A stretch of DNA of 34,569 nucleotides from a virus (taxonomy: Duplodnaviria > Caudoviricetes): IMG/VR virus record IMGVR_UViG_3300037509_000105, positions 1 through 34,569 of that record; one strand, given 5' to 3'. The stretch's first letter is position 1, and every line of letters begins with the position of its first letter. Under the pieces are notes generated by a model. It was not told where the DNA came from. It searched no databases and saw nothing but the letters and a program-made list of their open reading frames with translations. Made by a program: the position numbers and the translations under genes. Shown here one piece after another: positions 2,548-32,631 of the stretch.

Positions 2548-3726
2548 TAGATCGTCAAGGCTCATCTTTAGGTTGTTGCTCGTCAAAGAGAGATGCGACG
2601 CATCGAAGTGAACCTGAGCCCCGAAGAAGTGGCGCTCCTTAAGAAGAAGATCGCCTCCGGAACGTCTCCCGCCCGGGAGATCCAGCACGCCCGCATCCTC
2701 CTGGGCTCGTTCGAGGGACTCGGCGACGAACAGGTCTCTCGCGAAGCGATGGTCTCCAAGCCGACGGTCTGGAGCGTGCGCCGGCTCTACGCGGAGGGCG
2801 GGCTGGACGCGGCGCTCCGTCGCAAACCCCAGCCGCCCCGCCCGGAAAAGCGGAAGGTGACGGACGACACGGAGGCGCGCCTCGTCGCGCTGGCGTGCTC
2901 GGCGGCTCCCGAAGGAAGGAACCGCTGGACGCTCCGCCTTCTTTCGGACCACGCCGTGCGTTTAGGCTACGCTCCTGCGGGGCTCTCCCACGAGAGCGTG
3001 CGCCAGGCGCTCAAAAAAACGAGCTGCGTCCTTGGAAAACCGAGCGCTGGGTGATCCCGCCGAGAGAGAGCGCCGCCTTCGTCGCCTGCATGGAGGACGT
3101 GCTGGACATCTACCTTGAGCCGCACGATCCGCAGACGCCGGTGGTGTGCCTGGACGAGATGCCGGTGGGGCTCGTCGACCATGCCCGGGAGCCGCTGCCC
3201 GCGCAGCCCGGGAAAACGAGGAAAGAAGACTACGAGTACGTGCGGGGCGGCAGCGCCACCGTCTTCGGCGCGCTGGACCTCAAAGGCGGGAGACGGCTCC
3301 TGGAGGTCTCCCCGAGAAGAGCCAAGGAGGACTTCGCCCGCTTCGTCAAGAGGGTGGTGGACGAGCTTTGCGCGGGGGCGGAGCGAGTAAGGCTGGTGCT
3401 CGACAACCTCTCCACCCACTCCAAAGCCGCTTTGTACGAGGCGTTCCCTCCCGAAGAAGCGATGCGCCTTTGCAAGAAGCTCGAGTTCCACTACACGCCC
3501 AAGCACGGCTCATGGCTGAACGCGGTGGAGCTGGAGTTCGCCGCCTGCCACAAGCAGTGCGTCGGAGGCAAGCGCCTCGGCGGTACGGAGGAGCTGTGCC
3601 AGACGATAAGAGCCTGGCAGGACGAGAGGAACGAAGCCCGCGCCACCGTCCGGTGGACCTTCGACGTCCCTGCCGCCCGGCAGAAGCTCCACCGGATCTA
3701 TCCTAAAAACGAAGCTTGACGGTCTA
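2548..3726 (+). mobile_element. IS630-family insertion sequence
   Basis: Inverted ends TAGATCGTCAAG..TTTAGG / CCTAAAAAC..CTTGACGGTCTA enclosing a two-ORF DDE transposase. Confidence 0.93.
2593..3719 (+). CDS. IS630 transposase (orfA 2593-3054 HTH plus orfB DDE, joined by a -1 frameshift)
   Basis: HTH and RWTLRLL in orfA; VVCLDE, LVLDNLSTH and SWLNAVE in orfB; A7 slippery run at 3013-3019; orfB is in the -1 frame. Confidence 0.93.
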
Positions 3727-5774: not shown

Positions 5775-6242
5775 ATGCCGGACCTTTCCCCAAAACAAAA
5801 GGCGTTTCTCGGGGCGTTTGCCGAGACGGGCAGCGTGACGGCTGCCGCACGTGCTGCGGACATCTACCGCAGCACGCACTACTACTGGCTGGAGAATCCG
5901 GAGTACGCGAAGGCGTTCGACCAAGCGCAAGAGGAAGCCACCGACCGGCTGGAGGAAGAGGCGCGGCGGCGAGCGGTCCAGGGCGTCCAGCGGCTGAAGT
6001 TCGGCGGCAACGGTGCGCCTCTGAAAGACCCGCGCACCGGCGAGGTGTACGTCGAGCACGTGTACAGCGACTCGCTCCTCGTGGCCCTGCTCAGGGCCAA
6101 CCGACCCGAGAAGTACGCCGACCGGCACAAGCACGAGATTTCGAACCTGTCCAACGATGAGCTTATCGCTAAGGCAAGAGCTGCCCTTATTGCTTCAGGA
6201 GATGGAGCGGCGGGGGTTGCTGGACAGCCTCCAACGGACTGA
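5775..6242 (+). CDS. terS: Terminase small subunit
   Basis: N-terminal HTH (KQKAFL..GSVTAAARAA), LEEEARRRAV..G, YSDSLL..RPEKY; directly upstream of terL. Confidence 0.8.
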   Translation: MPDLSPKQKAFLGAFAETGSVTAAARAADIYRSTHYYWLENPEYAKAFDQAQEEATDRLEEEARRRAVQGVQRLKFGGNGAPLKDPRTGEVYVEHVYSDSLLVALLRANRPEKYADRHKHEISNLSNDELIAKARAALIASGDGAAGVAGQPPTD

Positions 6243-7512
6243 GGCTCGGCCGCGTTGGCGAGACATCGCCCGGCCGAACCAGCTTCCTCCCCCCGGCGAC
6301 TGGCGGATCTGGCTGTTGATGGCGGGCCGGGGGTTCGGCAAGACGCGCGTGGGGGCGGAGCTTTTCCGGGAGTGGGCGGAGTCGGGCGAGAACTCCCACC
6401 TGGCGATTATCGCGCCGACGTTCGCGGACGCCCGGGACACGTGCATCGAGGGGGAGTCGGGGCTGATCGCTTGCTGCGGGGGGATCGGCGGGAAGTCCAT
6501 CCTCGAGAACTGGAACCGCTCGATGGGCGAGATCCGGTTCACGAACGGGGTGAAGGCGAAGGCGTTCGCGGCCTTGGAGCCGGAGCGGCTGCGGGGTCCG
6601 CAGCACGCGAAGATCTGGATGGACGAGTGCGGGACGCCGGAGTACAGCACGCAGACGCTGGACATGGCGCTGTTCGGGCTTCGGCTGGGCCAGAAGCCGC
6701 AGATCGTGATGACCACGACGCCGCGGCCGACGCCGCTCATCCTCAAAGTCAAGTCCATGCGCGGGACGGTGGTGACGGCGGGCGCGACGCGGGACAACGC
6801 GGCCAACCTCGCCCCGGGCGTGGTGGAGGACCTGCGGGAGCGGTACGAGGGGACGCGGCTGGGCTTGCAGGAGCTGGACGGCGTGCTGCTGGAGGACAAC
6901 CCCGACGCGCTGGTGCAGAAGGCGTGGATCGACCGCGACCGGTGCGGGTTCGACGACGTGCCGGACCTGGTGCGGGTGGTGGTCGGGCTGGACCCGGCGG
7001 GGACGCGCAACAAAAGCTCCGACAAGACTGGACTGATCGCGGTGGGGATGACGAAGGCGGAGCGGCCGCACTTCTACGTGCTGGTGGACCGCTCGGGCCG
7101 CTACCGCCCGAAGGAGTGGGCCTCGGTGGCCATTTCCACTTTCCACCGGCTGAGGGCGGCCCGCGTCGTGGGGGAGACGAACTACGGCGGGGACATGGTG
7201 AAGGCCACCCTGCACAGCGTGGAGCGGGTGCCGTTCGAGGGCGTCCACGCGTTCAAGGGCAAGGCGCTGCGGGCGGAACCGGTGGCCTCGCTTTACGAGC
7301 AGGGGCGCGTCCACCACGTGGGGGTCTTCGAGGAGCTGGAGACGCAGCTGACCACCTGGGACCCGTCGCAGGAGAGCCCGAACAACCTGGACGCTTTGGT
7401 TTACGCGGTGCTGGACCTCGACCCCAGCGTTGGACGCGAGTTGCAGACGGTGCGCAACCGGTTCGCCCAGCCTGATCCGGCCAAGAAGAGATTTAAGACC
7501 TATCCCGTGTAA
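6157..7512 (+). CDS. terL: Terminase large subunit
   Basis: Walker A AGRGFGKT, Walker B IWMDE, TTTP coupling motif, nuclease GLDPA..ETNYGG..SPNNLDA; start uncertain. Confidence 0.93.
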   Translation: MSLSLRQELPLLLQEMERRGLLDSLQRTEARPRWRDIARPNQLPPPGDWRIWLLMAGRGFGKTRVGAELFREWAESGENSHLAIIAPTFADARDTCIEGESGLIACCGGIGGKSILENWNRSMGEIRFTNGVKAKAFAALEPERLRGPQHAKIWMDECGTPEYSTQTLDMALFGLRLGQKPQIVMTTTPRPTPLILKVKSMRGTVVTAGATRDNAANLAPGVVEDLRERYEGTRLGLQELDGVLLEDNPDALVQKAWIDRDRCGFDDVPDLVRVVVGLDPAGTRNKSSDKTGLIAVGMTKAERPHFYVLVDRSGRYRPKEWASVAISTFHRLRAARVVGETNYGGDMVKATLHSVERVPFEGVHAFKGKALRAEPVASLYEQGRVHHVGVFEELETQLTTWDPSQESPNNLDALVYAVLDLDPSVGRELQTVRNRFAQPDPAKKRFKTYPV

Positions 7513-7526
7513 GGAGCGACCCAACC

Positions 7527-7697
7527 ATGCGAAGCAAGAAGGCAAACAACCATGACGCAGACCCTCAAGAGCGGACGACGGGAGAGCCCGAAGTCCTCCA
7601 AGAAGCCGAAGAAGTAGCGCCCCTGGACGGCATGACGCCGATCGAGGAGCAGCCGGGCTACGCGCCGGGATGCCGGCCGGTGTTCGGGAGGGGCTAG
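7527..7697 (+). CDS. Small acidic hypothetical protein (56 aa, below ORF-track cutoff)
   Basis: AAGGAG upstream; MRSKKANNHDADPQ..PVFGRG; its TAG overlaps the GTG of the next gene. Confidence 0.55.
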   Translation: MRSKKANNHDADPQERTTGEPEVLQEAEEVAPLDGMTPIEEQPGYAPGCRPVFGRG

Positions 7698-8392
7698 TGG
7701 AGGCCATCGTCGACGAGAGCGCGATCCAACTCACCCCCGCCGAGGCCCCGGCGGTCGAGGTGGAGCGGGCGAAGGCCCACCTGAGGCCGATGGCGAGCAT
7801 CGTGGGGGTGGAGATGCGGCCGGCTCCGGAGGAGCTTGGGGGCATCCTGCTGCCCGAAGAGGTGGCGGACCAGTTCCGGGCCGACGTGGGGACGGTGGTG
7901 GCTTCCGGCGACTCGGAAGTGGAGCCCGGCGACACCGTGATGGTGCGCTACGGCGACGGCAAGCAGATCGACGGCTTCGCGTGCGGCGGCTATCAACCTA
8001 AAGAGCAGGTCCGGCTGTACGGCATCGCCGGGGGCAACGACGACGCGAACGACGCCGAGAGGGTGCCGTGGTGGGACTCGGTGGTGGCGGTGCAGCGGGA
8101 AGCGTGGCAGCCCACGGGGGACAACGTCTTCGTTCGGCGCGACCCGGCCCCGAAGCAGGAGGGGAGCATTTGGCTTCCCGACGAGGAGCAGACCCGCCCG
8201 GACACCGGTACGGTGGTGGCGGTCGGACCCCGCCTCCAGTGGACGTTCGTGGACGGTTCGGGAGTCCGGCGGTTCTTACGGCCGGGCGACCGAGTGGTCT
8301 TCCACCGCACGGGCATTTTGCACACCGAGATGGACAGCGGCCTGGACGTGGCGATCATGCGCGACCTGTGCGTGTACGTGGTGATGGAGTGA
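7697..8392 (+). CDS. Tandem two-domain GroES/Cpn10-like co-chaperonin
   Basis: Domain 1 LRP..GGILLP..GTVVASG..VEPGDTV; domain 2 QPTGDNVFV..GSIWLP..GTVVAVGP..LRPGDRVVF. Confidence 0.8.
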   Translation: MEAIVDESAIQLTPAEAPAVEVERAKAHLRPMASIVGVEMRPAPEELGGILLPEEVADQFRADVGTVVASGDSEVEPGDTVMVRYGDGKQIDGFACGGYQPKEQVRLYGIAGGNDDANDAERVPWWDSVVAVQREAWQPTGDNVFVRRDPAPKQEGSIWLPDEEQTRPDTGTVVAVGPRLQWTFVDGSGVRRFLRPGDRVVFHRTGILHTEMDSGLDVAIMRDLCVYVVME

Positions 8393-20472: not shown

Positions 20473-21668
20473 TGAGCCAGATCGCGCACAACCTTTTCAA
20501 TCTGTTCTCTCAGTCGCTCCGCCCTGGGGGCACGGGTGTTACCGGGCTCTCGCCGTCGGTTGGCGCTGACCGGGGCTTCCGTTCGTTCGGCGGCACGTCG
20601 TACGTGACCGAACCCTCTCCCGAGGCCACTACGGCGTTCGCGCCCCAAGACCCGGTTCTCCCGCCTCCGAACCCGCTGGAGGAGCTTATCGGGCAGCTAC
20701 AGTCATCCTCGCGGTTCGACCAACAGGCGCAGGAAGACTATCAGAAGGCGGCGGCGATGCGGCGGCAGGCGTACCAGACACCGGTGCCTCGCCCCGTCCA
20801 GCCGGCCTTCCGATCCATGGATCTATTGGGCTTGCTCGGCGCGTTCGACCCGTCGGGGCAGTTCCTCCAGGGCTTCATGGGCGCAAAGCAGGCCAAGGAC
20901 GACCAGGACACCCAGTACGGCCAGCAGGCGTTCCAGACGCGGCAGCAGGGGCTGCTGAACGAGGCGGAGCAGCACGACCGGATGGGCGCTCTGGCGAGGC
21001 AGCAGGGGCAGGACGAGCACGCCCGGGTGATGGACCGCGTCAACCTTGCGTGGAGGCGCCAGCAAGAAGCCGAGGAGAATCGGCGCTGGGACACTGGTCA
21101 GCGCAATCAGAACTTCCGCTCCATCCTGGGGGACCTCGGCAACGTCACCAGCGAATCGCAGATCGAGGGTATCAAAGCCGTCGCAAAGTCCATGGGCATC
21201 GAGAAGGACCCCGCTCAGTTGCAGTGGGCGCGGGACGGGATGAGGGACCGGAAAAACCGGGAGGCGGCCTTAAGCTTGGCTCCGCGTCTGATCAGCGCGA
21301 TCTCAAAGGACGGAGCGGCGGCGGCACGGGGCATCCAGGGCGACACGCTGTTGCGGATTCTGGAGAAGTACCCGGAAATCGTGCCCGACGCGGTTTGGCT
21401 CAGGACCCAGGTGGAGGAGCTACGCAGGAACACGCCCCAAGAGACCAAGACCCTTGGGGAGACGACGGGGGTTCCGGCGAATCCGGCCAAGACCACGGCG
21501 CCGACCGGCCGCAGCCGACCGTTGACTAAGGCCGAGCGGCCCCTTGGCACCCTTCCGGCGGCGGGGCCTAACGGCCAGAGCGTCACGGTGCGGGCTCAGC
21601 CCTCCAGGTCCGGCCGACAGGTCAAGCTCCCTAGCGGCGCGACCGTCACCATCGGGAGGCCCCGATGA
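20472..21668 (+). CDS. Putative ejection / internal virion protein
   Basis: TGATG coupling; Q-rich helical protein with FLQGFMG. Confidence 0.65.
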   Translation: MSQIAHNLFNLFSQSLRPGGTGVTGLSPSVGADRGFRSFGGTSYVTEPSPEATTAFAPQDPVLPPPNPLEELIGQLQSSSRFDQQAQEDYQKAAAMRRQAYQTPVPRPVQPAFRSMDLLGLLGAFDPSGQFLQGFMGAKQAKDDQDTQYGQQAFQTRQQGLLNEAEQHDRMGALARQQGQDEHARVMDRVNLAWRRQQEAEENRRWDTGQRNQNFRSILGDLGNVTSESQIEGIKAVAKSMGIEKDPAQLQWARDGMRDRKNREAALSLAPRLISAISKDGAAAARGIQGDTLLRILEKYPEIVPDAVWLRTQVEELRRNTPQETKTLGETTGVPANPAKTTAPTGRSRPLTKAERPLGTLPAAGPNGQSVTVRAQPSRSGRQVKLPSGATVTIGRPR

Positions 21669-24600
21669 GCCCGAAGGTGCTGACGTTCGACATCGACGGC
21701 CACAGGGTTCCCGTGCAATGGAGCGAACCGCGCGACCCTACGGCCGATGAACTGGAGGCCATCGAGCGGGAGGTGCGGGAGACCGTGCCCAAAGCGCCGA
21801 AGTCCCGAGGTCCGAAGCCGCGGGCCCTCAAGCCCGCAGCGACGCTCGACCAGCTCCGCACCCGCAAGGGGGAGCTGGAGGCGACCGTGCGCCAGATGGA
21901 GGTCGCGGGCCGAACCGCGAAGTTCCAGCGGGTGGAGCTGGCGAACGTCTACGGGCAGATGCGCGAGATGCAGCCGCCCCGGCCGAAGCCAGCGACTGCC
22001 ACGTCACCGACGTACAACGGGCGTCTCCACCGTGCGTTCACGGTCAGGCCCGGGGCCAATGTGAACCGGCTTACCGACGAGGCCAAGAGCGTGCTTTACG
22101 ACGTGGGCGAGTACGTCCACAAACTCGGCGGCCGCGCGATCATTACCAGCGGCAAGCGGAGCGGGAGTATCCCGTCCCATCACAACGACGGCAATGCGGT
22201 GGACCTGGTGCTGCACGGGCTGGACATGCAAGGGATCGCGGATCGGCTGCGGGCGATGGGCTACCGGGCGGAGTTCGAGCGCAAGGGGCAGGTCAACCCC
22301 AACGGCTCGGTTTCCACGGGCGACCACATCCACATCAGCCTGCACCGACCCTCCGGGAGGAAGCGGGGCGACGGCTCCATGCTGCGCCCGCCCGCGGACA
22401 TGCGCCACGCCAAGCCGCGGGTCCGCAACGTCAAGTACGATCCCGACCCGCTGGCACTGCTCCGGGAACTCGACACCCCCGAGTCCAGGGCCAAGGGGCA
22501 GGCGTGGGCCGACGAGTTGAGCAAGACCCTCGGATTCGGCAAGAAACCCGACGCTAAGAGACCCGTCGCCAAGGAGCCCCTGAAGAACCTTACCGGTGCG
22601 AAGTCTCCGGGGCTCCTGGCGATCGAAGCCTACTTTAGGGGCCAGCCGAAGTCTCCCGCCCCGGATGGGCCGGCACCGCTCCACCCGTACTACCGGATGC
22701 GGGAGGCGGCGAAGAGGGACGCTGGCGAGAAGCGCGAGGCCGCACTGGAGGCGGTGCGCACGATGAAGGGCCACCCTGCCTACGTCGGCAGCGACGCGGA
22801 AGCGCTCGACATGGCGACGGCCTACGGCTCGGTGAAGGCGCCCAACACCCGCAAGACCAGCTTTGAAAGCGGGGTCAATAGGGCGCTGAGGGGGGGCGAG
22901 AAGGTTTTCGGCGGCATCGCCACGTCCGCCTTCCCCGGCGGCATCACCCGGAACCTGACCCCCGACCAGCGGGAGCGGCTCGCCATGCAGACCGGCGCGG
23001 GACTGGGCATCCTTCCCCTCGGCGGCATTAGCGACGCCATGCCGTTCATCCAAGCGATCCGGACGGACGACGAGACGCCGATCTTGGACGCGATCAGGGA
23101 GACGAAGGATTCCCTGAACCTCGGGGATCCTAAGAAGACTCCCTACGAGAAGTTCGTCAGTGCCGTTTCCTTGGGCATGCTCAGTCTGGGCTTGGCGCAC
23201 GGGGCCAGGACCGCGCTGCGCCTGGGCAAGCGGATCAAGGTGGAGCCCGGAAAGGGGCTGGTCGACCTTGAGGGATACTTGGAGGACACGAAGGTGCGGG
23301 CGGCGTTGCAGGACGCGGGCGTCTCGCCCGACGAGGTGTCCGCCGCCATCAGGGGCGGATACGGCGCGAACGGGACCCAGGTTCCCGGCAGTCGCCGGGC
23401 GGCCTTTGAGAGCGCCCTCGTCCGCAAGGCGACGGAGGCGGGAATACCCAAAGCGCAGGCCGTCGCGGTCACCAAAGCGTGGCGCAGGGTGGCGCAGACG
23501 TGGGCGGCCAACACCGGCAACTCCATCGACGACGCCTACGCGAGAGTGGCGCGGATCACCTTGGACGAGGACGCGCCCAAGGGGGCGCTGTTCCAGATCA
23601 TGACGGCCCGCGAGTCCGACATGGTCAGCCCAGAGGCGATCGAGCAATGGCTATCGAAGGCGGGCAAGAAGAGCGGCGAGACGATCAAGGTTGGCGTTGC
23701 TCCGTACGACCGCACCGGAGTGGGGACCTACGAGAACGCCCGAACGGGGGCGACGGCCCCGATGCAGGGCGGCGCGGGGTTCGGCAAGCAGACCCACGAG
23801 GGTGCGGCACTCGCGTTTACCACCCAGGACAAAACGTCCGGAGCCAAGAAAGTGGTCGAGGACCACGGCACGGACGGCTACACACTTATCATTGGACAGG
23901 GTCGAAGCTCGGTCCTGACGAACACTCAGGCAAGCCGGAACGTGGTGGAGGAGATGAAAAGAGCCTCCGATGGCGTTGCGGCCCTCGAGCAGGGTTATTT
24001 GGACCGCTACAACAGCGCGTTCGACCCCAGGCACATCTCACCCGACATTCTGGAAGAGCACGCGATCAAGAACCCCCTAAAGCCACCCTCGGGGCCGGAG
24101 TTACAGAAGCTCGCGAAGGGTTGGACCCGCGACGTCGCCACCGTGCGCAAGTACGAGAAGCGGGAGACCCGTCCGGGCAAGTTCGAGTCGGTGCTTAAAG
24201 AGGAGAGGGAGGTCGTGTACCTGCGGCCCCCGATTGCCCGGTCGTGGGACGACGTTCTGCGCGACGCGCGGGACCTGACGTACCCCGTGCGCGGGGTGTT
24301 GCACGACAAACTGCTGCCGAAGGCGAAGCGCGAGCAGCTCGGGAAGAGCCCAGCCCATTACGACGAGGTGTACGACAACATGGTCGAGCCTATCTTCGAC
24401 ATTGGGGAGACGGGCGACATCATGGGACTCGTCCGCCAGGATGGGAGGTACGGAAACGACGGGCTGGCGCTCGGGGTCGCCGATGGGAACCACCAGAGCT
24501 ATCCCTGGATGGCAACGGGGGAGCACCACGGCATGATCGCCTCGAAGCCGGGGGAGGGGATCAACCTCTACGACATCGTGGTCCCTAGCCAGCGGAAAGA

Positions 24601-27600
24601 GGTCTACGACGCAGCGGTAAAGAACGCCGGGGGAAAAGTACCGACGCGCAAGCAGATCGGCGGCCAGGTGCTGCGAGTACTCGGTAGGAGTGGGTGGGCC
24701 GAGCTGCCCGTCGATGCGATCGAGAGGATCGGGTACTACCTGGAAGATGCAAAATCTAGGCGAGGATCTATCGGAGACGGACAAGGAGTGGCTGGCCAGG
24801 AACTGGGCCGCTATTCCCCTACCGATCCGCGACTTGATCGAGGACTCGCTCGGGTTCGAGACGAGGAACGAGGTGGTGTCGATGGCCCTCAACCCGCGCC
24901 TGATGGAGCCGGTTCCACCACCCTCCACCAGCGCGCCGACGGAGTAGTCAAGGCCGCCGTCACTTTGGACGAGGCGGAGCGGGCGGTCCTGCACCTCTTC
25001 ACGGGCAAGACCGACGTCTCTTCCCTGCTGCACGAGTCGTTCCACGTCTGGCGCAGGATGCTGCCGGAAGCGGACCTCGCGATCCTCGAGAAGCACTTCG
25101 GGGACGTCCGCTCCGTCAAGGCGGAGGAGGCCTTCTCGCGCGCCGGGGAGCGCTACCTGCGCGACGGCAGGGCCCCCGACCCCGAGCTCCAAAGGCTCTT
25201 CGACCAGTTCAGCGGTTGGCTCAGGGGCGTCTACGCGAAGCTGAAGGGAAGCCCGCTGGAGGCGGAGGTCCACCCCGACGTGCGGGGCGTCTTCGACCGG
25301 ATGTTCGGCGGCGAGGATGCGCCCGCAAAGGCGAAGGGGCAGAGGCCCGCGAAGTCAGTCGGGCCCGGAGAGGGCGGCGGTGCGCTCAGCCTGGCATTGC
25401 CGACAGGCCACGTCGACCCGAGGACGGGCAGGGCGCTGGACGACCTCGTGCCCGACGGGGCAGAGCCGCCGCCACCCGGCGGCGCACCCGATCCGACGGT
25501 AGGAGCCCAGGCCAAAGACCTGGGCTCTTCCATTTTGGAGCCCGATCCTCTGCCGGAGGCGGCCCCTGGGCGGGGCGGCGGCAACCGGGTCTTCACCCAG
25601 GAGTCGTACCTTGCCGCCAAAGAGCGGATCCGGCGGCGGCGGGGCCGCGCGGCGGCCGGCGTCGATCCGGAGGAACTCCGGGACTGGGCCATCGTGGCGG
25701 GTCATCACGTGGAGTCGGGTCTTCGCGAGTTCGGCGCCTGGTCGAGGGCGATGGTCGACGAGTTGGGAGAGCGGGTCCGGCCCCACCTCGACTCGCTCTG
25801 GAAGCGGGTGAGCGAAACGCTGGACGACCACCGCCGGATGGCCGAAGAGGACGCGGAGTTGGCGCGCGCTCGCGGTGCCGGTGGTTCGGGACCGGTTCGA
25901 GCCGTGCCGGACGAGGAAGGCTTCATGCCTTTCCGCGAGTTCGACGATATCCCCAAGGATGAACTGTGGCCCCACGCCCAGAGGGCGGCCGAGCGACCGA
26001 TCACCGTACGCCTCGATCATTTTCCAGAGGAGGTGGGCTACGAGGCCTACAAGGCCGCTCAGAAGGATGCTGAGAAGTATTTCAAAGCCCATTTAGACAA
26101 AGAGTGGGTTAGGGTTCCCGGATTCGGCAGGGTTCACTTCAGCTCAGCCACGTGGGAGAAGTTAGCCAGAGGAAACTTCACGACCTTCAATCTGATCCCG
26201 GAGATCCCGAGGCTCCTTCGAGCGGCCCAGTACATGTGGAAGGAGAGAGCCAAGCGGCCGGAGGGAGGTTACTGGATTGGAGCGCACCGGCTCGTCGTGC
26301 GCGTGAAAACGCCGAAGGGGGACTTCAACGTCTGGATCGTCGTGCGCGAACCCTCAGACGGGAGGTTCTACTACACGCACTTCTACACGGATGCGGATGC
26401 CCGTTGGTTTGGAAATCTCGGAGACATGCCCGAAGGGCACCCATCCCGATCGTCAACGGGCACCAATGATTCTACACGATCAGAGGATGCGGCGGGGCTC
26501 ACGGATGAGGCCGGAAGGCAACGAGGTCCCGACGACGGCCCCGAAGGTCCGGGCACCGGCGGGGGTGCGTCCTCTATCGCGCAGAAAGCCGAGGCCGACG
26601 GTGTCAAAGGCGCGGAAAGGGCGCTTTCTGCCCTTGAAGACCTCTTCCGTAGCGATGGAAATGGGCCTAGAATAGTTAAAGAAGGCGGAAGCGAGTATGA
26701 GGGACGAGAAGGAAGCTACCGGCGACGAGAAGGCACCAACCCCGAGCAAGAGCGAATCGCCCGCGGAGAACTTCTCGCTCTTCTACATCGAAGAGCTTCC
26801 GTTCTGGCCCGCGCCATTGCGCGGAGAGCCGTCGGAGAAGGAGGAGACGCCCTCCTCCACCAGCGAGTCGAGTCCCCCGAAGACGTAGCCACCCTCGCCC
26901 AGATCGTGAGGAACGCCCAGTGGGAGGTGTTCCGATACCTGTTCGTCAAGGACGGCAAGGTAGTCCACGAGTCGGCCGTTTCCGCCCGGCTTCCGGGTGC
27001 GACCCAGGTCTTCGTCAAGGACGACCTGCGTGAACTCGCCCAGTGGGTCCGTGGGCTAGTCGAGAAAACTGGCGCGGATACAATTTGGGCGCTCCACAAC
27101 CACCCGAGCGGTCGCGCGAACCCGTCCCCACAAGACATTGACGTGACTCGGAAGATCACTGCCTTGATCCCCGAGATCAAGGGCCACGTGATCATCGACT
27201 CCAACGAGTACGCAGTCATCCAACGGGATGGGACATCTGAGGTGATCGCCAAGGACTTCCACCACGGAGGCCCCGATCCACTCCACACGCCGGCGGTGCC
27301 TCACGTGGCTCTAGGGCGACAGATGCGGAGTGTGGCCGATGTCGCCGAGACCGCGGCACTCTTCAAGCACCCAGAGGGCACATCGCTGCTCATCGGGCTC
27401 GACGCGGGCAGTCTCGTCCGGAGCGTGACCACTGTTCCGTCAAGGTTCCTCGAAGGAGACACCGAGCGGTTGCCAGCGTTCTTGCGCCGGTTCGGCCGAC
27501 AGACGGGGTCCGTCGCCATTTTCATCAGCGCAGAGCCGGCACTGTTCGACAAGATCGGAACGGATCCCGCCTTGGCCGATCGACTCGCTAAAGCAATTCG

Positions 27601-28711
27601 TACGCGTCTCGTAATGGACGTTATCGCACCGGACGGAAGGCGCGCCTTGGACAACATGGGCGGCCGCCCGGTGGACCGCGAGCCGGGGGTGTACCTCGGG
27701 ACCAGAATCGACGGAGCGACCCGTTGGGTCCGCGACTCGGGGGGCGACGACGGGACCTACTCGAAGGCGAAGCCGCATCTCGACGCGGCGCTGAAGGCGT
27801 TCGTCGACTCGGGCAAGAGTGCCGAGGATTTCGCCCGCTTCGCGCGGGAGAACCTTGGTCCTGCCGCTTCGCGGCACCTTGACCGGTTCCTCCGGGACAC
27901 CCCAAGGAGTGGGTCGTCCACCGGTACAAAGAACGCCACCACGAAATCCGAGCGAGTGGAAAGGGGTCTGCCCGAGCCACCGAGGACCTCGCCGCGGAGT
28001 GGGAGGGATGGGGCTTCGGCTCTGGAAGTCCCGACGCACGAGTCGGCGGCATCCCCTTCGCCAACGGCGAGGACACGGGCAACCGTCGCGGGGGAGATCG
28101 AGTACCTCAGGCGTCGGCGGACAGGTCGCGCGTCGGGTACGGGCTCGCGAAGGCGCGGCTCGGGCGACGTCGACCCGGAGGACCTGCGCGTCGCGAAGGA
28201 CCTGGCGGTCCGTTACGTGGAGTACGGTCACCGCTCCTTCGCCGAGTTCTCCCGGGAGATGCTGACCGAGTTCGGGACGCCGATCCGCCCGCACTTGAGG
28301 CGACTCTACGGCGATGGGCACACCGGCGCGGGAGACCCCGTATCGCGGCTTATCCGGCTCGTCGACGGCGCGAGGACAGCGCGGGGAGAGGCGGGAGCGC
28401 CGGCCGGCGTTCTGGGGAGACCCGGCGGGCGCGATGGTTCCCCTCGGTCGACCGGGGCGACGAAGGGGCAGTTGCCGAGCGTGCGGTCCACGCCTCCGGA
28501 AAGAGGGCTGACGGCGGAGGAGCGGGACGACCTCTTCGTTATGGCCATGAAGACCGACGGGCTCCAGCCGTCCCAAAAGCTCAACGCCCAGCGGGCGCTC
28601 GCCACCCTGTTGGGAGGGGAGTTGCCGACCGCGGGCCAACAGGCGCTCCTGCAGCGGGTGTACGGCCCGGATCTGGTCCAGGCGATCTTGAGGAAGCGGA
28701 CGATGGGGTAG
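21665..28711 (+). CDS. Large polyvalent (ejection-type) protein: M15/LAS peptidase, unknown domain, HExxH zincin-like, LPD3-like, JAB/RadC
   Basis: ITSG.R..SHHNDGNAVD..HIH (~22140-22335); LLHESFH (25031); LPD3-like ..VVREPSDGRFYY (~26060-26390); E..HNHPSG...PS..D..GHVII (27095); repeated GVDPE..G..F..F...M...G..IRPHL helices. Confidence 0.8.
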   Translation: MSPKVLTFDIDGHRVPVQWSEPRDPTADELEAIEREVRETVPKAPKSRGPKPRALKPAATLDQLRTRKGELEATVRQMEVAGRTAKFQRVELANVYGQMREMQPPRPKPATATSPTYNGRLHRAFTVRPGANVNRLTDEAKSVLYDVGEYVHKLGGRAIITSGKRSGSIPSHHNDGNAVDLVLHGLDMQGIADRLRAMGYRAEFERKGQVNPNGSVSTGDHIHISLHRPSGRKRGDGSMLRPPADMRHAKPRVRNVKYDPDPLALLRELDTPESRAKGQAWADELSKTLGFGKKPDAKRPVAKEPLKNLTGAKSPGLLAIEAYFRGQPKSPAPDGPAPLHPYYRMREAAKRDAGEKREAALEAVRTMKGHPAYVGSDAEALDMATAYGSVKAPNTRKTSFESGVNRALRGGEKVFGGIATSAFPGGITRNLTPDQRERLAMQTGAGLGILPLGGISDAMPFIQAIRTDDETPILDAIRETKDSLNLGDPKKTPYEKFVSAVSLGMLSLGLAHGARTALRLGKRIKVEPGKGLVDLEGYLEDTKVRAALQDAGVSPDEVSAAIRGGYGANGTQVPGSRRAAFESALVRKATEAGIPKAQAVAVTKAWRRVAQTWAANTGNSIDDAYARVARITLDEDAPKGALFQIMTARESDMVSPEAIEQWLSKAGKKSGETIKVGVAPYDRTGVGTYENARTGATAPMQGGAGFGKQTHEGAALAFTTQDKTSGAKKVVEDHGTDGYTLIIGQGRSSVLTNTQASRNVVEEMKRASDGVAALEQGYLDRYNSAFDPRHISPDILEEHAIKNPLKPPSGPELQKLAKGWTRDVATVRKYEKRETRPGKFESVLKEEREVVYLRPPIARSWDDVLRDARDLTYPVRGVLHDKLLPKAKREQLGKSPAHYDEVYDNMVEPIFDIGETGDIMGLVRQDGRYGNDGLALGVADGNHQSYPWMATGEHHGMIASKPGEGINLYDIVVPSQRKEVYDAAVKNAGGKVPTRKQIGGQVLRVLGRSGWAELPVDAIERIGYYLEDAKSRRGSIGDGQGVAGQELGRYSPTDPRLDRGLARVRDEERGGVDGPQPAPDGAGSTTLHQRADGVVKAAVTLDEAERAVLHLFTGKTDVSSLLHESFHVWRRMLPEADLAILEKHFGDVRSVKAEEAFSRAGERYLRDGRAPDPELQRLFDQFSGWLRGVYAKLKGSPLEAEVHPDVRGVFDRMFGGEDAPAKAKGQRPAKSVGPGEGGGALSLALPTGHVDPRTGRALDDLVPDGAEPPPPGGAPDPTVGAQAKDLGSSILEPDPLPEAAPGRGGGNRVFTQESYLAAKERIRRRRGRAAAGVDPEELRDWAIVAGHHVESGLREFGAWSRAMVDELGERVRPHLDSLWKRVSETLDDHRRMAEEDAELARARGAGGSGPVRAVPDEEGFMPFREFDDIPKDELWPHAQRAAERPITVRLDHFPEEVGYEAYKAAQKDAEKYFKAHLDKEWVRVPGFGRVHFSSATWEKLARGNFTTFNLIPEIPRLLRAAQYMWKERAKRPEGGYWIGAHRLVVRVKTPKGDFNVWIVVREPSDGRFYYTHFYTDADARWFGNLGDMPEGHPSRSSTGTNDSTRSEDAAGLTDEAGRQRGPDDGPEGPGTGGGASSIAQKAEADGVKGAERALSALEDLFRSDGNGPRIVKEGGSEYEGREGSYRRREGTNPEQERIARGELLALLHRRASVLARAIARRAVGEGGDALLHQRVESPEDVATLAQIVRNAQWEVFRYLFVKDGKVVHESAVSARLPGATQVFVKDDLRELAQWVRGLVEKTGADTIWALHNHPSGRANPSPQDIDVTRKITALIPEIKGHVIIDSNEYAVIQRDGTSEVIAKDFHHGGPDPLHTPAVPHVALGRQMRSVADVAETAALFKHPEGTSLLIGLDAGSLVRSVTTVPSRFLEGDTERLPAFLRRFGRQTGSVAIFISAEPALFDKIGTDPALADRLAKAIRTRLVMDVIAPDGRRALDNMGGRPVDREPGVYLGTRIDGATRWVRDSGGDDGTYSKAKPHLDAALKAFVDSGKSAEDFARFARENLGPAASRHLDRFLRDTPRSGSSTGTKNATTKSERVERGLPEPPRTSPRSGRDGASALEVPTHESAASPSPTARTRATVAGEIEYLRRRRTGRASGTGSRRRGSGDVDPEDLRVAKDLAVRYVEYGHRSFAEFSREMLTEFGTPIRPHLRRLYGDGHTGAGDPVSRLIRLVDGARTARGEAGAPAGVLGRPGGRDGSPRSTGATKGQLPSVRSTPPERGLTAEERDDLFVMAMKTDGLQPSQKLNAQRALATLLGGELPTAGQQALLQRVYGPDLVQAILRKRTMG
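24747..24947 (+). CDS. Candidate nested (+1 frame) small acidic protein
   Basis: MQNLGEDLSETDKEWLARNWAAIPLPIRDLIEDSLG.. reads as a normal protein where the host frame becomes a G/R/D-rich linker. Confidence 0.5.
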   Translation: MQNLGEDLSETDKEWLARNWAAIPLPIRDLIEDSLGFETRNEVVSMALNPRLMEPVPPPSTSAPTE

Positions 28712-28831
28712 GGGGCATCCAGGAGCGGGTGATCCGTCGTTCGCGCCAGGTTTGCTTGACGCCGTCAACGAAGATGGCCTTGCCAACGGGACCGCGAAAA
28801 GCTCGCGCTTGCGGCAGGCGAACTCGCAGGA

Positions 28832-29572
28832 GTGCCAGACGACCTAGAGGGACTTGTCCTGAACTTTGCGGCCGGCGGAATGGCTGGTCTGGCCTTCAAG
28901 GGAGCAGGCTCCGTCCTGAAGACTGTCTTTAAGCACCTGAAGAAAGGCGACACCGCGGCGGAGAAAGCCATTCAAGCCCTTCCTATCCGCCCGGAAAAGA
29001 AGACGGCGGTGGTAGACGCTGTGGCGGTCGCCTCTCCGCGCAAAGAGCCTATTACCGAAGCGGTTGTGGAGACCGCGGAGAAAGCGGAGTCCAAGAGCAT
29101 TGAGCCAAGGCTCCAGGCGCCCGACTCTGATCCAGCCACGGCTTCTGGAGAACCAGAAGAAGTCGTCAGGGAGTCTAGTGAGCTCATCCCAGATCCAACC
29201 AACCGGTTGTACACGGCCACGACGGGTATGCCCGGCGTCAGCGAAAACACCCTGGGGAAGGAAGGGACGGTCGTTTGGAGGGATCCGGCACGATCCCCAC
29301 CCGCTCAGGCAACGGGCGCCACCCTTCAGCAACCCGGGAATACGCCTGCCCCTGGGTCGCCTGGGCCTGTGGTCCAACCGACTAACCCGATTATGCCACC
29401 TGACGATCTGCCGCCTTCGGGAGGGGGAAGAAGCCGCTTGAGAATCCGCCCCGTTCCCACGCTGCATTCTAAAACGACGCCAACTATGGCGCTAGGTTGC
29501 TATTCGCCCCATCGGGCCTCTCGCTCACGCCACTCCGCTTGCTCTTGGTCTCGGTCTTCCCTTATCTCTTGA
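28832..29572 (+). pseudogene. Fragment resembling the interior of a second polyvalent/ejection protein
   Basis: NFAAGGMAGLAF glycine-rich helix, then an E/P/A-rich linker; 3' end looks non-coding. Confidence 0.4.
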
Positions 29573-29649
29573 GTTTGGGAGTCAGAGGTAGGCCAACGAA
29601 AGAGACCGCCGCCAATCGAAGTCACTCGCAACGTTGGCGGGGCTGGGGT

Positions 29650-30303
29650 TGGGGGAGTGATCTAACCGGCATCGGTGGCTCATACGGCATCCATCTGGAT
29701 GCAGCCCAGCGGGCTGCGGCCGAGTTGGGCTTGGCACACGCTCGCGAGGCCCAAAGCATTCCATGGGAGGCGGTAAGGCTTCTCTTCTCGCCAGAGTTCA
29801 AGACCCCGGCGAACAAAGCGGCGATAGAAGACATCTGGAAGAACGTTGATAGTGGTGTACGCTCTGTAGATGATGCTCGACGAGCCATCCGTGACCTTGC
29901 TGGAGGCTTTGACGAACCCTCTTGGAACGGATCTGGTCCGCGCTATACACCTGACGAAATCCGATCGTATCACGAGATCGGAATGGTTGGAGATGGAGTT
30001 CCCGGACGGGGTGCCGGACCCTTGGACGGCGGAGCACGAGGCGGAACTCCCGCCGGGCCTCCGCTCGGACGGATTGGAAATCCCACCGCACTTGCCCAGG
30101 AAGGCGCACCAGGAACCTTAAAAGCGGCCGTCTCGATTCCCGAGAACGAAGCGCCTGTCGTCCACCTCTTTACCGGCGTCTCCGACTTCTCGTCGCTCGT
30201 CCACGAGTCCTTCCACGTGTGGCGCCGCTTCCTGGACGACGCAGACCTTGTTGGCAAGTCATATTCCGTAGAGGCTGAGGAAGCCTTTTCGCGGGCAGGC
30301 GAG
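29650..30303 (+). pseudogene. Orphan paralogous cassette of the polyvalent protein
   Basis: Within ORF 29497-30459: ..AQSIPWEAVRLLF..IW..AGG..PSW domain end, linker, then KAAV..HLFTG..SSLVHESFHVWRR..AEEAFSRAGE, homologous to 24948-25150. Confidence 0.7.
29870..30121 (+). CDS. Candidate nested (+1 frame) small acidic protein; start uncertain (29870/29891/29909)
   Basis: ITRSEWLEMEFPDGVPDPWTAEHEAELPPGLR is protein-like while the host frame is a G-rich linker. Confidence 0.55.
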   Translation: MMLDEPSVTLLEALTNPLGTDLVRAIHLTKSDRITRSEWLEMEFPDGVPDPWTAEHEAELPPGLRSDGLEIPPHLPRKAHQEP

Positions 30304-30355
30304 CCTGCCTCACGCCCGCATTGTACAACGGACCTTACGTTCGGCTCGCCGAAGG

Positions 30356-30775
30356 CTAGCCCTTCATTGGGTCGGATTTGGATTCTCGGATCGATTTGTA
30401 ACAGGAGATTGCAGCCACAACTCCCGGGAGCGAGGAAAGAATCCAGCCCAAGTTCCTGAAAAGCCGGTCACGACCTCGGAGCGGGACCCTGAACAAAATG
30501 CTGTCCCTCTCATCTTGGCGGGCCACGCGTTCACCAGCCCATGGCACGGTGACTGCGACAACAACGTACAGCACGCACGATAGAGTGAAGAAGAAGGATG
30601 GACTCTCTGAGGACCAGGTTGCCCAAATGGCGGCCACCTCCGCTAGGCCCGGCAGAAGGAGAGCTGCCCCGCCCGCAAGCAAACCGGCTTCGTCACAGAT
30701 GATCAGGCATGCCCACAGATGGAGGAACAGCCCAAAGCCGTACGCTAGGGCGTACGACCAAACGAACAGCGTCAG
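30356..30775 (-). CDS. Multi-pass membrane protein (start unclear)
   Basis: Hydrophobic frame extends upstream of TTG 30682 to the TGA of the next gene (LTLFVWSYALAYGFGLFLHLW..). Confidence 0.5.
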   Translation of the reverse strand: MTLFVWSYALAYGFGLFLHLWACLIICDEAGLLAGGAALLLPGLAEVAAIWATWSSESPSFFFTLSCVLYVVVAVTVPWAGERVARQDERDSILFRVPLRGRDRLFRNLGWILSSLPGVVAAISCYKSIRESKSDPMKG

Positions 30776-31090
30776 TCAGCCTTCTTCGTCCTTCGTCCTC
30801 GACCCTGTTGCTAAGGTTGCGGCCCCAGCAACCACGAGCGCCCCGACCGTCGCCCAGTTGTAGGGCACCCAGTCGCTCCGCCTCATCTTCCCGGTCAGCT
30901 CCACCCAGCCAAGGGCGAGCAACACCACGCACAGAGGCAGGAACCACTTTGAAGAGCGCCACAGCATTGCAGCGGTGACCCCACAGGCAGCGGATACGAC
31001 TAGCTTGAGGATGCTGAAGAAGGAGTACGGCGGATCGCCGAGAAGCGCGTACAAGAGCATCGCGATGGCGGCAAGATCGAGAAGAACCAT
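30776..31090 (-). CDS. DUF6804-like membrane protein
   Basis: LL.ALL..PYSFFSILKLVV..R..W pattern (recalled family motif); ATG 31090 with AAGGCGGG upstream. Confidence 0.65.
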   Translation of the reverse strand: MVLLDLAAIAMLLYALLGDPPYSFFSILKLVVSAACGVTAAMLWRSSKWFLPLCVVLLALGWVELTGKMRRSDWVPYNWATVGALVVAGAATLATGSRTKDEEG

Positions 31091-31461
31091 CCCGCCTTTC
31101 GTCGCCTTGTCCACGCAACACCCTATCATCGAGGGGCGGCGGAAGACAAGCGCCCGCACTGTAACACGGGGCTAGGTGGGGGCTTCACCGGGAAGTAGCC
31201 ACAGCGCCAGATGTACCCGTTACCGGGCCCTCCGCTTTCACGCCCTAAGCTCTCTGTGGCATGAAGGGGACTGTACTGTACGACAGACGGGAAGGTCAAA
31301 GATGACCTGGAGTGGGGCCAGAGCCCTGGTTTGAAAATTTAAACGACGTCGAATTCGACGGAGGCGTAGGAACCTCGTACAGTACGACCCGTCAACAGCC
31401 TGTATACTGCTCAACGCAGCGTGTTTTGCGCCAATATAGGCGCTTTTACACTTGGGTCTGA

Positions 31462-31761
31462 GTGAGGGGCACCGTGGAAGACGAGAACACCAAACCTGTC
31501 GAGGTAACCGTAAAAATGCAACCCGAAGCGTTCGTTCGCGCACCTCGCGTGTACGGGCAATCCGCGATTGTGTCCGTCAACCACGAAGAAGCGCAGATGC
31601 TTTTCGGGCAAACGGTGACGCTTGGAGGGGAGCAGACGTTCATGCTCGATTCCGTGGTGTACATGAACCTTGGACACTTTCGAAGGTTCGCCAAGTCCGT
31701 TCAGGCTCAGCTAGAAATGTTCGACAGAATGGCGGGAGGGTCCGACGAAGATGGCGATTGA
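31462..31761 (+). CDS. DUF3467-like protein (start 31462 or 31474)
   Basis: P.VYGQ...V....E..M.FGQ.....VYMN..HFRRF...V..QL..F pattern. Confidence 0.65.
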   Translation: MRGTVEDENTKPVEVTVKMQPEAFVRAPRVYGQSAIVSVNHEEAQMLFGQTVTLGGEQTFMLDSVVYMNLGHFRRFAKSVQAQLEMFDRMAGGSDEDGD

Positions 31762-32308
31762 AGTCGCATTCGTGGCGGGCGCGGCCATTCTGGCATCGTC
31801 CCAGAGGATCAGAGTCGCGGAGCCTAGCGATCGCGTTTCTTTCACTGGATGGTCTACCGCTCGGGCTTCTCGAAAGGAGGAGTGGGCTCACAAGCACCTT
31901 CCTGAGATTGGCCGGATCGCGGCAGGGCTACCTGAGTCCGACATGGAAACCTTTCTGGACGATCTCCACAAGGCCTACATGGCGGAGGACGAACTAGCCT
32001 TTCTCGCTGCGCTCTCAGACTGGGAAGCCACTGCAAACGTGTACGCAACTCCGGGCCTGGGGAATCGCTTAAGGCAGGGCCGACTTGAGCCTAAGGCGCT
32101 GGTGCGCTATTCAGGCACGAGGTTAAGTGTGACCACCCAAGAAACCGACGAGGATCGCGAAGGCTATAGCGAGAGGCAGTTCAAGGCCGCTCTTGTGGCT
32201 GCAAGCCCTGTCATAGCAGAGCGGGCAGAAGCCGCCAAAGCGCGGGGCAGGATCGGCAAAGAAGAGGCGCTTAGACGGATGCGCGAAGCGCTGGATGCTC
32301 ACTCCTGA
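31751..32308 (+). CDS. Putative long antitoxin
   Basis: Overlaps both neighbours; LP....FLDDL..LSDWEATANVYATP core; C-terminal GRIGKEEAL helix upstream of the toxin. Confidence 0.55.
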   Translation: MAIEVAFVAGAAILASSQRIRVAEPSDRVSFTGWSTARASRKEEWAHKHLPEIGRIAAGLPESDMETFLDDLHKAYMAEDELAFLAALSDWEATANVYATPGLGNRLRQGRLEPKALVRYSGTRLSVTTQETDEDREGYSERQFKAALVAASPVIAERAEAAKARGRIGKEEALRRMREALDAHS

Positions 32309-32570
32309 CCTTACTGAGGACGCATCGGAGTTTCTAGACTCGCTTCCCACCAAGACTGCCAATCAGATTTGGAAGAAGATCGCCATGCTTTGCCAGAACC
32401 CGAACGCGGGTGATGTTAAGCAATTGGTCGGATATCCGTTCTTGAGATGCCGCTGCGGTGACTATCGCATCATCTACGAGATAGAGGACCAGACGACCCT
32501 TTTGGTGGTCCTTGTGGGATACCGAGGTGACGACGAAGTTTACAAAGAACTGAAGCGCCTGTACGGCTAA
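32295..32570 (+). CDS. relE: RelE/ParE-family toxin
   Basis: A.EFLDSL..KI..L.QNP..VKQLVG..RCRCGDYRIIYEI..VVLVGYR..VY. Confidence 0.88.
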   Translation: MLTPDLTEDASEFLDSLPTKTANQIWKKIAMLCQNPNAGDVKQLVGYPFLRCRCGDYRIIYEIEDQTTLLVVLVGYRGDDEVYKELKRLYG

Positions 32571-32598
32571 CCCGTTTCTCGCTCCACCCCATCCCCAA

Positions 32599-32631
32599 GG
32601 CCCCACTCCACAGGAGTGGGGTCTTTTCTTT
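32599..32631 (+). terminator. Intrinsic terminator
   Basis: CCCCACTCC-ACA-GGAGTGGGG followed by TCTTTTCTTT. Confidence 0.8.

Follow-up and report, generated by a model that had tools for sequence, protein, structure and literature searches.

The window, as the whole stretch of DNA analysed is called here, is IMG/VR virus record IMGVR_UViG_3300037509_000105, a single phage contig of 34.6 kb (34,569 nucleotides). It carries a gene for a 2348-aa virion protein that fits the polyvalent type (21665-28711, the main gene) and, 1 kb 3' of it in a stretch of lower GC, a leftover at positions 29653-30303. Judged from its sequence, the leftover is the broken remainder of a phage polyvalent-protein gene, in which a small gene in the +1 frame alone is still whole. 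This small gene is a member of a family, termed the partner, that accompanies the domain DUF7178.

The leftover and its parts

The leftover is composed of four parts, all on the plus strand. The first (29653-29931) is a C-terminal remnant of DUF7178 (PF23802) of about 92 aa, which covers positions 338-429 of a 431-position domain profile and lacks the predicted catalytic Lys and Asp. The second (29870-30121) is the intact partner gene, nested in the +1 frame and encoding 83 aa with an isoelectric point (pI) of 4.65. It matches the partner profile, built without it, at E 1.4e-10, out-codes the main frame in a codon test, and is assigned the predicted three-helix fold of its family, which has no name. 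Its start is at Q+39, as in many relatives. The third part (29932-30120) is the main-frame linker lying over the partner gene and is rich in Gly, Arg, and Pro. Third-position GC of the main frame is 0.45-0.46 over the nested gene, compared with 0.89 in ordinary genes, and this value and the conservation by frame in relatives mark the linker, on sequence grounds, as a by-product of the nested gene. The fourth part (30121-30303), the anchor, is the N-terminal half of a zincin-like HExxH metallopeptidase and ends at AEEAFSRAGE. The anchor is the only convincing match of the leftover to the main protein, with 44 of 72 residues identical to main-gene residues 1091-1162 (61%, E 4e-26); the next-best anchor relative in the examined set reaches 38% over 42 aa.

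An initial annotation of this stretch, made from its letters alone, had named a series of motifs, and all are present where it placed them: QSIPWE at 29752, EPSW at 29914-29925, KAAV at 30121, HLFTG at 30163, HESFH at 30202, and AEEAFSRAGE at 30274-30303. The small acidic +1 open reading frame (ORF) that it saw over the linker is borne out by the independent profile match and the codon test. The domain upstream is also real and different from that of the main gene, but only a fragment of it is present. The nested ORFs of the leftover (83 aa) and of the main gene (66 aa) both lie in the +1 frame and are mutually unrelated (hhalign probability 0.6%), as claimed, but they do not share a stop position. 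Relative to the anchor the stops are one codon apart, with 27 codons from stop to HE in the leftover and 28 in the main gene. Nor does the TAA of the leftover lie one codon before KAAV; at 30119-30121, it overlaps the first base of the K codon, and the TAG of the main gene (24945-24947) ends two bases before its peptidase.

The region is held wholly or partly by 20 sequencing runs from 17 studies, and no RNA data set containing it is listed. Contigs from runs not marked as a possible source cross both ends of the leftover with zero differences (29558-30345 in X8 and X9, which look like a single data set filed twice, and 29910-31250 in X4), and an assembly artefact was rejected on these grounds. 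An intact gene split by a frameshift was also rejected, as no further piece of DUF7178 occurs in any frame of the window. The 5' break of the DUF7178 remnant coincides exactly with a run of G-tracts (29636-29659). Locus searches with single sequences returned one match for the remnant, which was false (L001), and only itself for the partner; a DNA-pattern search for the anchor returned 0 matches.

DUF7178 and its nested partner

The 93-aa DUF7178 piece has 1208 relatives at E ≤ 0.001 among representatives at 50% identity, many of them within large proteins. All 18 full-length relatives scanned match PF23802 above its curated cut-off. The window remnant alone has no Pfam match and is found at E 4.7e-37 by a profile of full-length relatives (114 relatives, 431 positions), in which the whole domain spans about 400 residues. 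In one subgroup (L172, L176, L187, L200, and 11 proteins), DUF7178 is fused nearly directly to another unnamed domain with an FEVAP motif, and DUF7178 is not followed by a partner at any of the four DNA loci.

A structure model of one DUF7178 relative has a predicted local distance difference test (pLDDT) score of 92. Among its 22 top structural matches, 20 are DNA glycosylases of the helix-hairpin-helix (HhH) type, and the other two are queuine-salvage hydrolases. The best match is Tm1821 (root-mean-square deviation 3.8, 186 residues aligned, Z 9.6, a modest value for a helical domain). Residues K203, D225, and H227 are invariant in 51 sequences, and K203 and D225 sit at helix starts in the model. 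DUF7178 has no sequence match in the PDB. It resembles the HhH-GPD glycosylases (Tm1821/OGG2, AGOG, endonuclease III, and MutY) in predicted fold and apparently in a conserved Lys...Asp-x-His pattern, and differs from them in its sequence (about 10% identity), a large insert, its virion-protein context, and its dedicated partner. From the model, DUF7178 is predicted to be an HhH DNA glycosylase. Since K203 and D225 lie upstream of the remnant, the copy in the window is predicted to be dead.

The partner was studied at 195 fetched loci, which comprised the best 80 viral, the best 80 metagenomic, and all 35 genomic loci from roughly 2000 pattern matches. Removal of duplicates left 158, and 148 remained after 10 with too little downstream DNA were dropped. 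Over the linker, the +1 frame is open in 136 of the 148 loci; the +2 frame is open in 17 of them, and in-domain control windows are open in 177 of 868 cases. Among 43 nested representatives, identity is 0.416 in the +1 frame versus 0.256 in the main frame, and third codon positions of the +1 frame vary most (0.56, 0.63, and 0.38 for the three positions). A Shine-Dalgarno sequence precedes the ATG in 83 of 110 loci versus 53 of 944 control ATGs. Partners are also acidic, with a pI below 5.5 in 105 of 122 versus 4 of 132 other nested ORFs. These patterns identify the +1 gene as a real, conserved gene under selection in its own frame.

The partner model consists of three short helices (pLDDT 74). 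Members of the family belong to no known family (0 of 52 in PHROGs and two stray single matches in Pfam), and the fold has no match in the PDB (Z at most 2.2); one 77-aa viral model matches at E 0.024. In its nested form (81 loci), the small gene fits the picture of an embedded gene, with a start signal of its own and selection acting on its frame while the host frame remains open. Rz1 of phage lambda is nested in the +1 frame of Rz. The Rz/Rz1 spanins (PMC5295617; here and below, cited papers are meant in the passages available) are like the DUF7178 unit in that a small gene sits, in another reading frame, within the gene for its partner protein. The two systems differ in that Rz and Rz1 are lysis membrane proteins and one fixed pair, whereas DUF7178 and its partner form a mobile unit inside kilobase-long shuffled genes.

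A partner is present at the end of DUF7178 in 126 of the 148 loci, a count that is partly circular because the partner profile was seeded from 92 +1 ORFs of the same loci; the window ORF, at the E value given above, lies outside that seed. The partner is in the +1 frame in 121 of the 126 and in other frames in 5. It is nested in a continuing main frame in 81 and is a downstream gene, mostly overlapping the domain end, in 45. At 20 of the nested loci the host frame runs on for more than 100 codons or to the end of the locus. A search that started from the partner (the best 80 of 141 matches) found DUF7178 within 3 kb in all 59 non-duplicate loci, directly adjacent in 57, in a set that favours overlapped copies and has contigs in common with the first set. 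The pairing of domain and +1 ORF that the initial annotation had proposed checking is thus nearly one-to-one for the domain with the QSIxWE motif, DUF7178.

The linkage is kept where overlap is lost. The partner lies on the opposite strand, tail-to-tail with the domain, in L154, L169, and L269, and behind a 600-nt insert in L052. On a tree of 83 domains, of unrooted quality and rooted at its midpoint, the state of the partner (nested, terminal, displaced, or absent) switches 18 times, against a mean of 32 after shuffling, which suggests that nesting was switched repeatedly. The 22 loci without a partner match include 7 with a diverged small +1 ORF in the same place (judged by eye), 3 with a displaced partner, 3 domain fragments, and 9 full domains. 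L197 is gp40 of the cultured Roseobacter phage CRP-738, an 835-aa protein two genes past the portal with DUF7178 at its C-terminus and no partner. In L185, a nested acidic +1 ORF of another kind (7633-7830), which has a Shine-Dalgarno sequence, lies about 1.4 kb behind a partnerless DUF7178, after another domain.

The partner frame is open beside a dead domain in three cases: the window, L194, and L186. The L194 case (6020-6430) is a frameshifted DUF7178 remnant of about 70 aa with an open partner ORF on a 248-kb Acidobacteriota contig, possibly on the host side. Orphan immunity and simple decay both fit these three relics.

A putative pair of effector and inhibitor

The favoured explanation, held with somewhat better than even confidence from the conservation data and structure models, is that DUF7178 is an injected DNA-damaging effector and that the acidic partner is its cognate inhibitor. 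Both would be made from one late message, so that production and packaging of the effector would never take place without the inhibitor. Carried into the next cell along with the phage DNA, the effector would remove bases from the DNA of the host or of a rival phage, and the small acidic partner would bind and block the glycosylase. Because the partner starts inside the last helices of the domain, it would travel with the domain when that is shuffled. As further domains are fused behind DUF7178, the partner would become fully nested, and the overlying main frame would become a junk linker.

Modules of DUF7178 and partner are common in the giant virion proteins of phages. The phage of the window would have gained its DUF7178 piece from the gene of a close relative and kept the partner alone whole, as either orphan immunity or debris. 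Such a relative likely had DUF7178 in the slot before the peptidase, since the leftover anchor is closest to that of the main gene and intact DUF7178-linker-metallopeptidase proteins exist (4 of 142 proteins, and L186).

The pair is proposed to work like the toxin-immunity pairs of MuF systems and systems for contact-dependent growth inhibition (CDI) (PMC5576092, PMC3482391) combined with a DNA-mimic glycosylase inhibitor, while lying outside those families. Temperate phages encode MuF polymorphic toxins (Jamet et al. 2017, PMC5576092), in which an effector gene in the virion region has a small ORF for putative immunity behind it, an arrangement matched by the 45 terminal-type loci. The DUF7178 partner differs in having its start within the domain and in being completely nested at 81 loci, and no MuF domain was matched in the main protein or in the 18 DUF7178 relatives. 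Ugi, p56, and SAUGI (PMC3711442, PMC2018632, PMC3902945) are small inhibitors of uracil-DNA glycosylase encoded by viruses or mobile elements, and they provide a mechanistic model for the partner. The phage examples of this type block a host enzyme of the uracil-DNA glycosylase family, whereas the DUF7178 partner would block the phage's own HhH-type enzyme. The all-helical predicted fold of the partner, without a PDB match, also sets it apart from them.

Several points weigh against this explanation. Foldseek finds no PDB match for DUF7178 at E ≤ 0.001 (only E 0.57 to AGOG), and the Z score of the best structural match is modest. The assignment of K203 and D225, which we take to be the Lys and Asp of a bifunctional glycosylase, goes by helix position and by likeness to HhH-GPD motifs. 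The co-occurrence count carries the circularity, and the partner-first set the bias, given above. The partner in the window has no clear Shine-Dalgarno sequence of its own. In 9 of the 148 loci a full domain that keeps the Lys has no partner nearby, and two of three GenBank phage records, including that of the cultured phage CRP-738, lack the partner. Partnerless full domains argue against strict immunity, as a strictly lethal toxin should not go unguarded.

These partnerless, Lys-keeping domains speak for an alternative that sees in the small protein a cofactor, a chaperone, or a timing regulator. Its enzyme would be a non-toxic glycosylase for repair or counter-defence that clears host marks or damage from incoming phage DNA. 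Injected DNA is often protected by polyvalent proteins (PMC5512222). Short stand-alone relatives of DUF7178 in mycobacteriophages are annotated 'glycosylase', and the single one examined has no partner match. A cofactor would fit all of the co-occurrence data equally well. Glycosylase-blocking DNA mimics are acidic. Against a cofactor, the partner looks like such mimics (PMC3711442, PMC2018632), and as a small, strongly acidic protein encoded directly downstream it has the usual look of an immunity protein (PMC5576092). It also persists next to dead domains in the three cases described above. A cofactor role is judged unlikely, though it retains appreciable weight.

The initial annotation had seen in the leftover a swappable cassette of effector and nested partner; on this view it would be a reserve that enters the main gene by recombination at the HESFH anchor common to both, so that effector and partner are exchanged together. 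The slot before the anchor does vary within the lineage, as the main gene and the leftover have different domains there, with acidic +1 genes that are not related to each other, and the leftover anchor is far closer to that of the main gene than to any other seen (61% versus at most 38%). The intact proteins of DUF7178, linker, and metallopeptidase also speak for such an exchange, as do the small cassette-like ORFs noted beside one polyvalent locus and proposed for Verrucomicrobium (PMC5512222). The idea of a reserve cassette is nonetheless improbable, and for this copy it is largely refuted. About 92 of 431 profile positions are left, without the predicted active site. The leftover and the main gene are homologous on the 3' side only, so that a crossover would presumably either remove the piece or put a dead fragment in place, and the anchor DNA (75 of 111 bases identical) is low in identity for recombination. 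No credible swap joint was found in the four runs examined, a set that excludes runs with only part of the region. Joints with sides of 20-21 bases or from contigs at 80% likeness, including one from 25154 to 30217, were not counted.

The nested ORF had also been tied to the HESFH anchor, yet four of five informative anchors outside the window have no acidic +1 ORF before them, and the partner therefore follows the domain and not the anchor. The likeness to orphan modules of CDI and Rhs systems holds in part. The orphan cdiA-CT/cdiI and rhs-CT/rhsI modules (Poole et al. 2011, PMC3150448) are, like the leftover, start-less effector fragments with a small partner gene, located 3' of a full-length gene with another variable part, and the leftover does have a linked small gene beside its effector. 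CDI orphans, however, keep a functional C-terminal toxin, have their immunity gene apart from it, and match the full-length gene upstream of the variable part (PMC3150448). In the leftover no complete toxin domain is retained, the effector is cut, internal, and overlapped by its partner, and upstream of the variable part there is no convincing match to the main gene. With a cut effector and homology only downstream, recombination could presumably not install a working module.

That the small gene is unrelated to DUF7178 and hitchhikes because its start lies in the coding sequence of the domain is very improbable: overlap would force co-inheritance and some full domains lack a partner, but the partner stays adjacent when inverted, frame-shifted, or separated by an insert, and was never found away from the domain (59 of 59).

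The unit of DUF7178 and nested gene is real, conserved, and apparently unpublished. No paper was found on DUF7178, its pairing with the partner, or nested partners in polyvalent proteins, in a literature search with subscription journals mostly outside its coverage. The effector and inhibitor explanation offers a hypothesis of function for an unstudied domain of more than a thousand clusters at 50% identity, and the partner genes form a conserved family that gene callers overlook in its nested form. Should the partner prove to be an inhibitor, toxin-immunity logic would operate within phage polyvalent proteins. Such logic would explain the internal placement and shuffling of toxic domains and the G/R-rich 'linkers', and the partner would provide a protein inhibitor for the glycosylase superfamily that includes OGG1, NTHL1, and MUTYH. 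A bolder version is put forward tentatively and given less than even weight. Polyvalent proteins would hold a hidden layer of cognate immunity, with each toxic internal domain and the inhibitor overprinted on its following linker shuffled as a unit. DUF7178 would be a virion-delivered glycosylase toxin with the first inhibitor of an HhH glycosylase, and orphan inhibitors would be hoarded against rival phages.

The main gene and its surroundings

The main gene (21665-28711, plus strand) lies 3' of genes for a terminase, an SU10-type portal, a capsid protein, and an adaptor, all on the same strand. Its product combines disparate conflict domains: LPD3, RadC/JAB, an HExxH peptidase, and a segment matching a DarB-like PHROG. 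In gene context and domain content it fits the polyvalent proteins with a metallopeptidase hub (Iyer et al. 2017, PMC5512222), which are giant multidomain proteins encoded near virion genes and contain an HExxH metallopeptidase, LPD3, and RadC. By analogy with these, and from its gene context, the product is inferred to be packaged and injected with the phage DNA. The available main text of PMC5512222 contains neither 'overlap' nor 'glycosylase', and nested genes or cognate partners were not found in its passages, in contrast to the DUF7178 unit.

In the slot held by DUF7178 in the leftover, the main gene has a domain without a family match (approximate limits 23627-24799, plus strand). No relative was found by word-index, viral-contig, GenBank-phage, Atlas (best 0.77), Pfam, PHROGs, or NCBIfam searches. 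It is followed by the 66-aa nested +1 ORF of pI 4.28 (24747-24947), in which the +1 frame out-codes the main frame by 0.48 and which is unrelated to the DUF7178 partner. The complete HESFH metallopeptidase comes next (24950-25354), recognized by its motif and its match to the leftover anchor; its family is described in section 8 of PMC5512222. Farther along the plus strand are LPD3 (26048-26374; PF18798, E 2.9e-11) and a RadC-like JAB domain (26873-27211; PF04002, E 1.9e-7). Between them is a third acidic nested +1 ORF of 63 aa and pI 4.41 (26697-26888), supported by the codon test and without a relative among the fetched loci. As a candidate partner, this ORF would belong to either LPD3 or JAB. 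Searches of phage records found no relatives of these two parts of the main protein or of its C-terminal part.

By a codon model trained on 11 window genes, the +1 frame clearly beats the main frame of the main gene in just two stretches, 24653-25004 and 26507-26939, which are those of its two acidic nested ORFs. The sole such signal in ordinary genes is a normal gene overlap at the portal end. Apart from these two and that of the leftover, 15 nested ORFs are listed in the window, and all have a pI above 11. The main gene probably carries two nested genes. A survey of 406,249 codons of long ORFs from the fetched loci gave no second conserved acidic nested family; the three small basic families that it did find seem to arise as a by-product of close kinship.

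Just after the stop of the main gene comes an open frame of 270 codons (28711-29572) with coding-like codon use and no relatives, and the main gene may be shortened at its 3' end. The frame itself (28760-29572, plus strand), favoured by the codon score at 28810-29260 and without a family match, is possibly another stray piece of a polyvalent gene. Near the start of the main protein, motifs at residues ~150-235 resemble an M15-type zinc peptidase. The corresponding DNA (~22100-22380) gives no profile match to that type.

Elsewhere in the window, a gene of 240 aa between the terminase and portal genes (7670-8392) contains a GroES-like co-chaperonin domain, and a DDE_3 transposase-like gene is located at 2895-3719. 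A low-GC island at 31462-32625 is made up of a DUF3467 gene, a 185-aa ORF, and a ParE-family toxin gene, with a possible toxin-antitoxin pair among them. The island is closed by a strong terminator-like hairpin (32597-32625).
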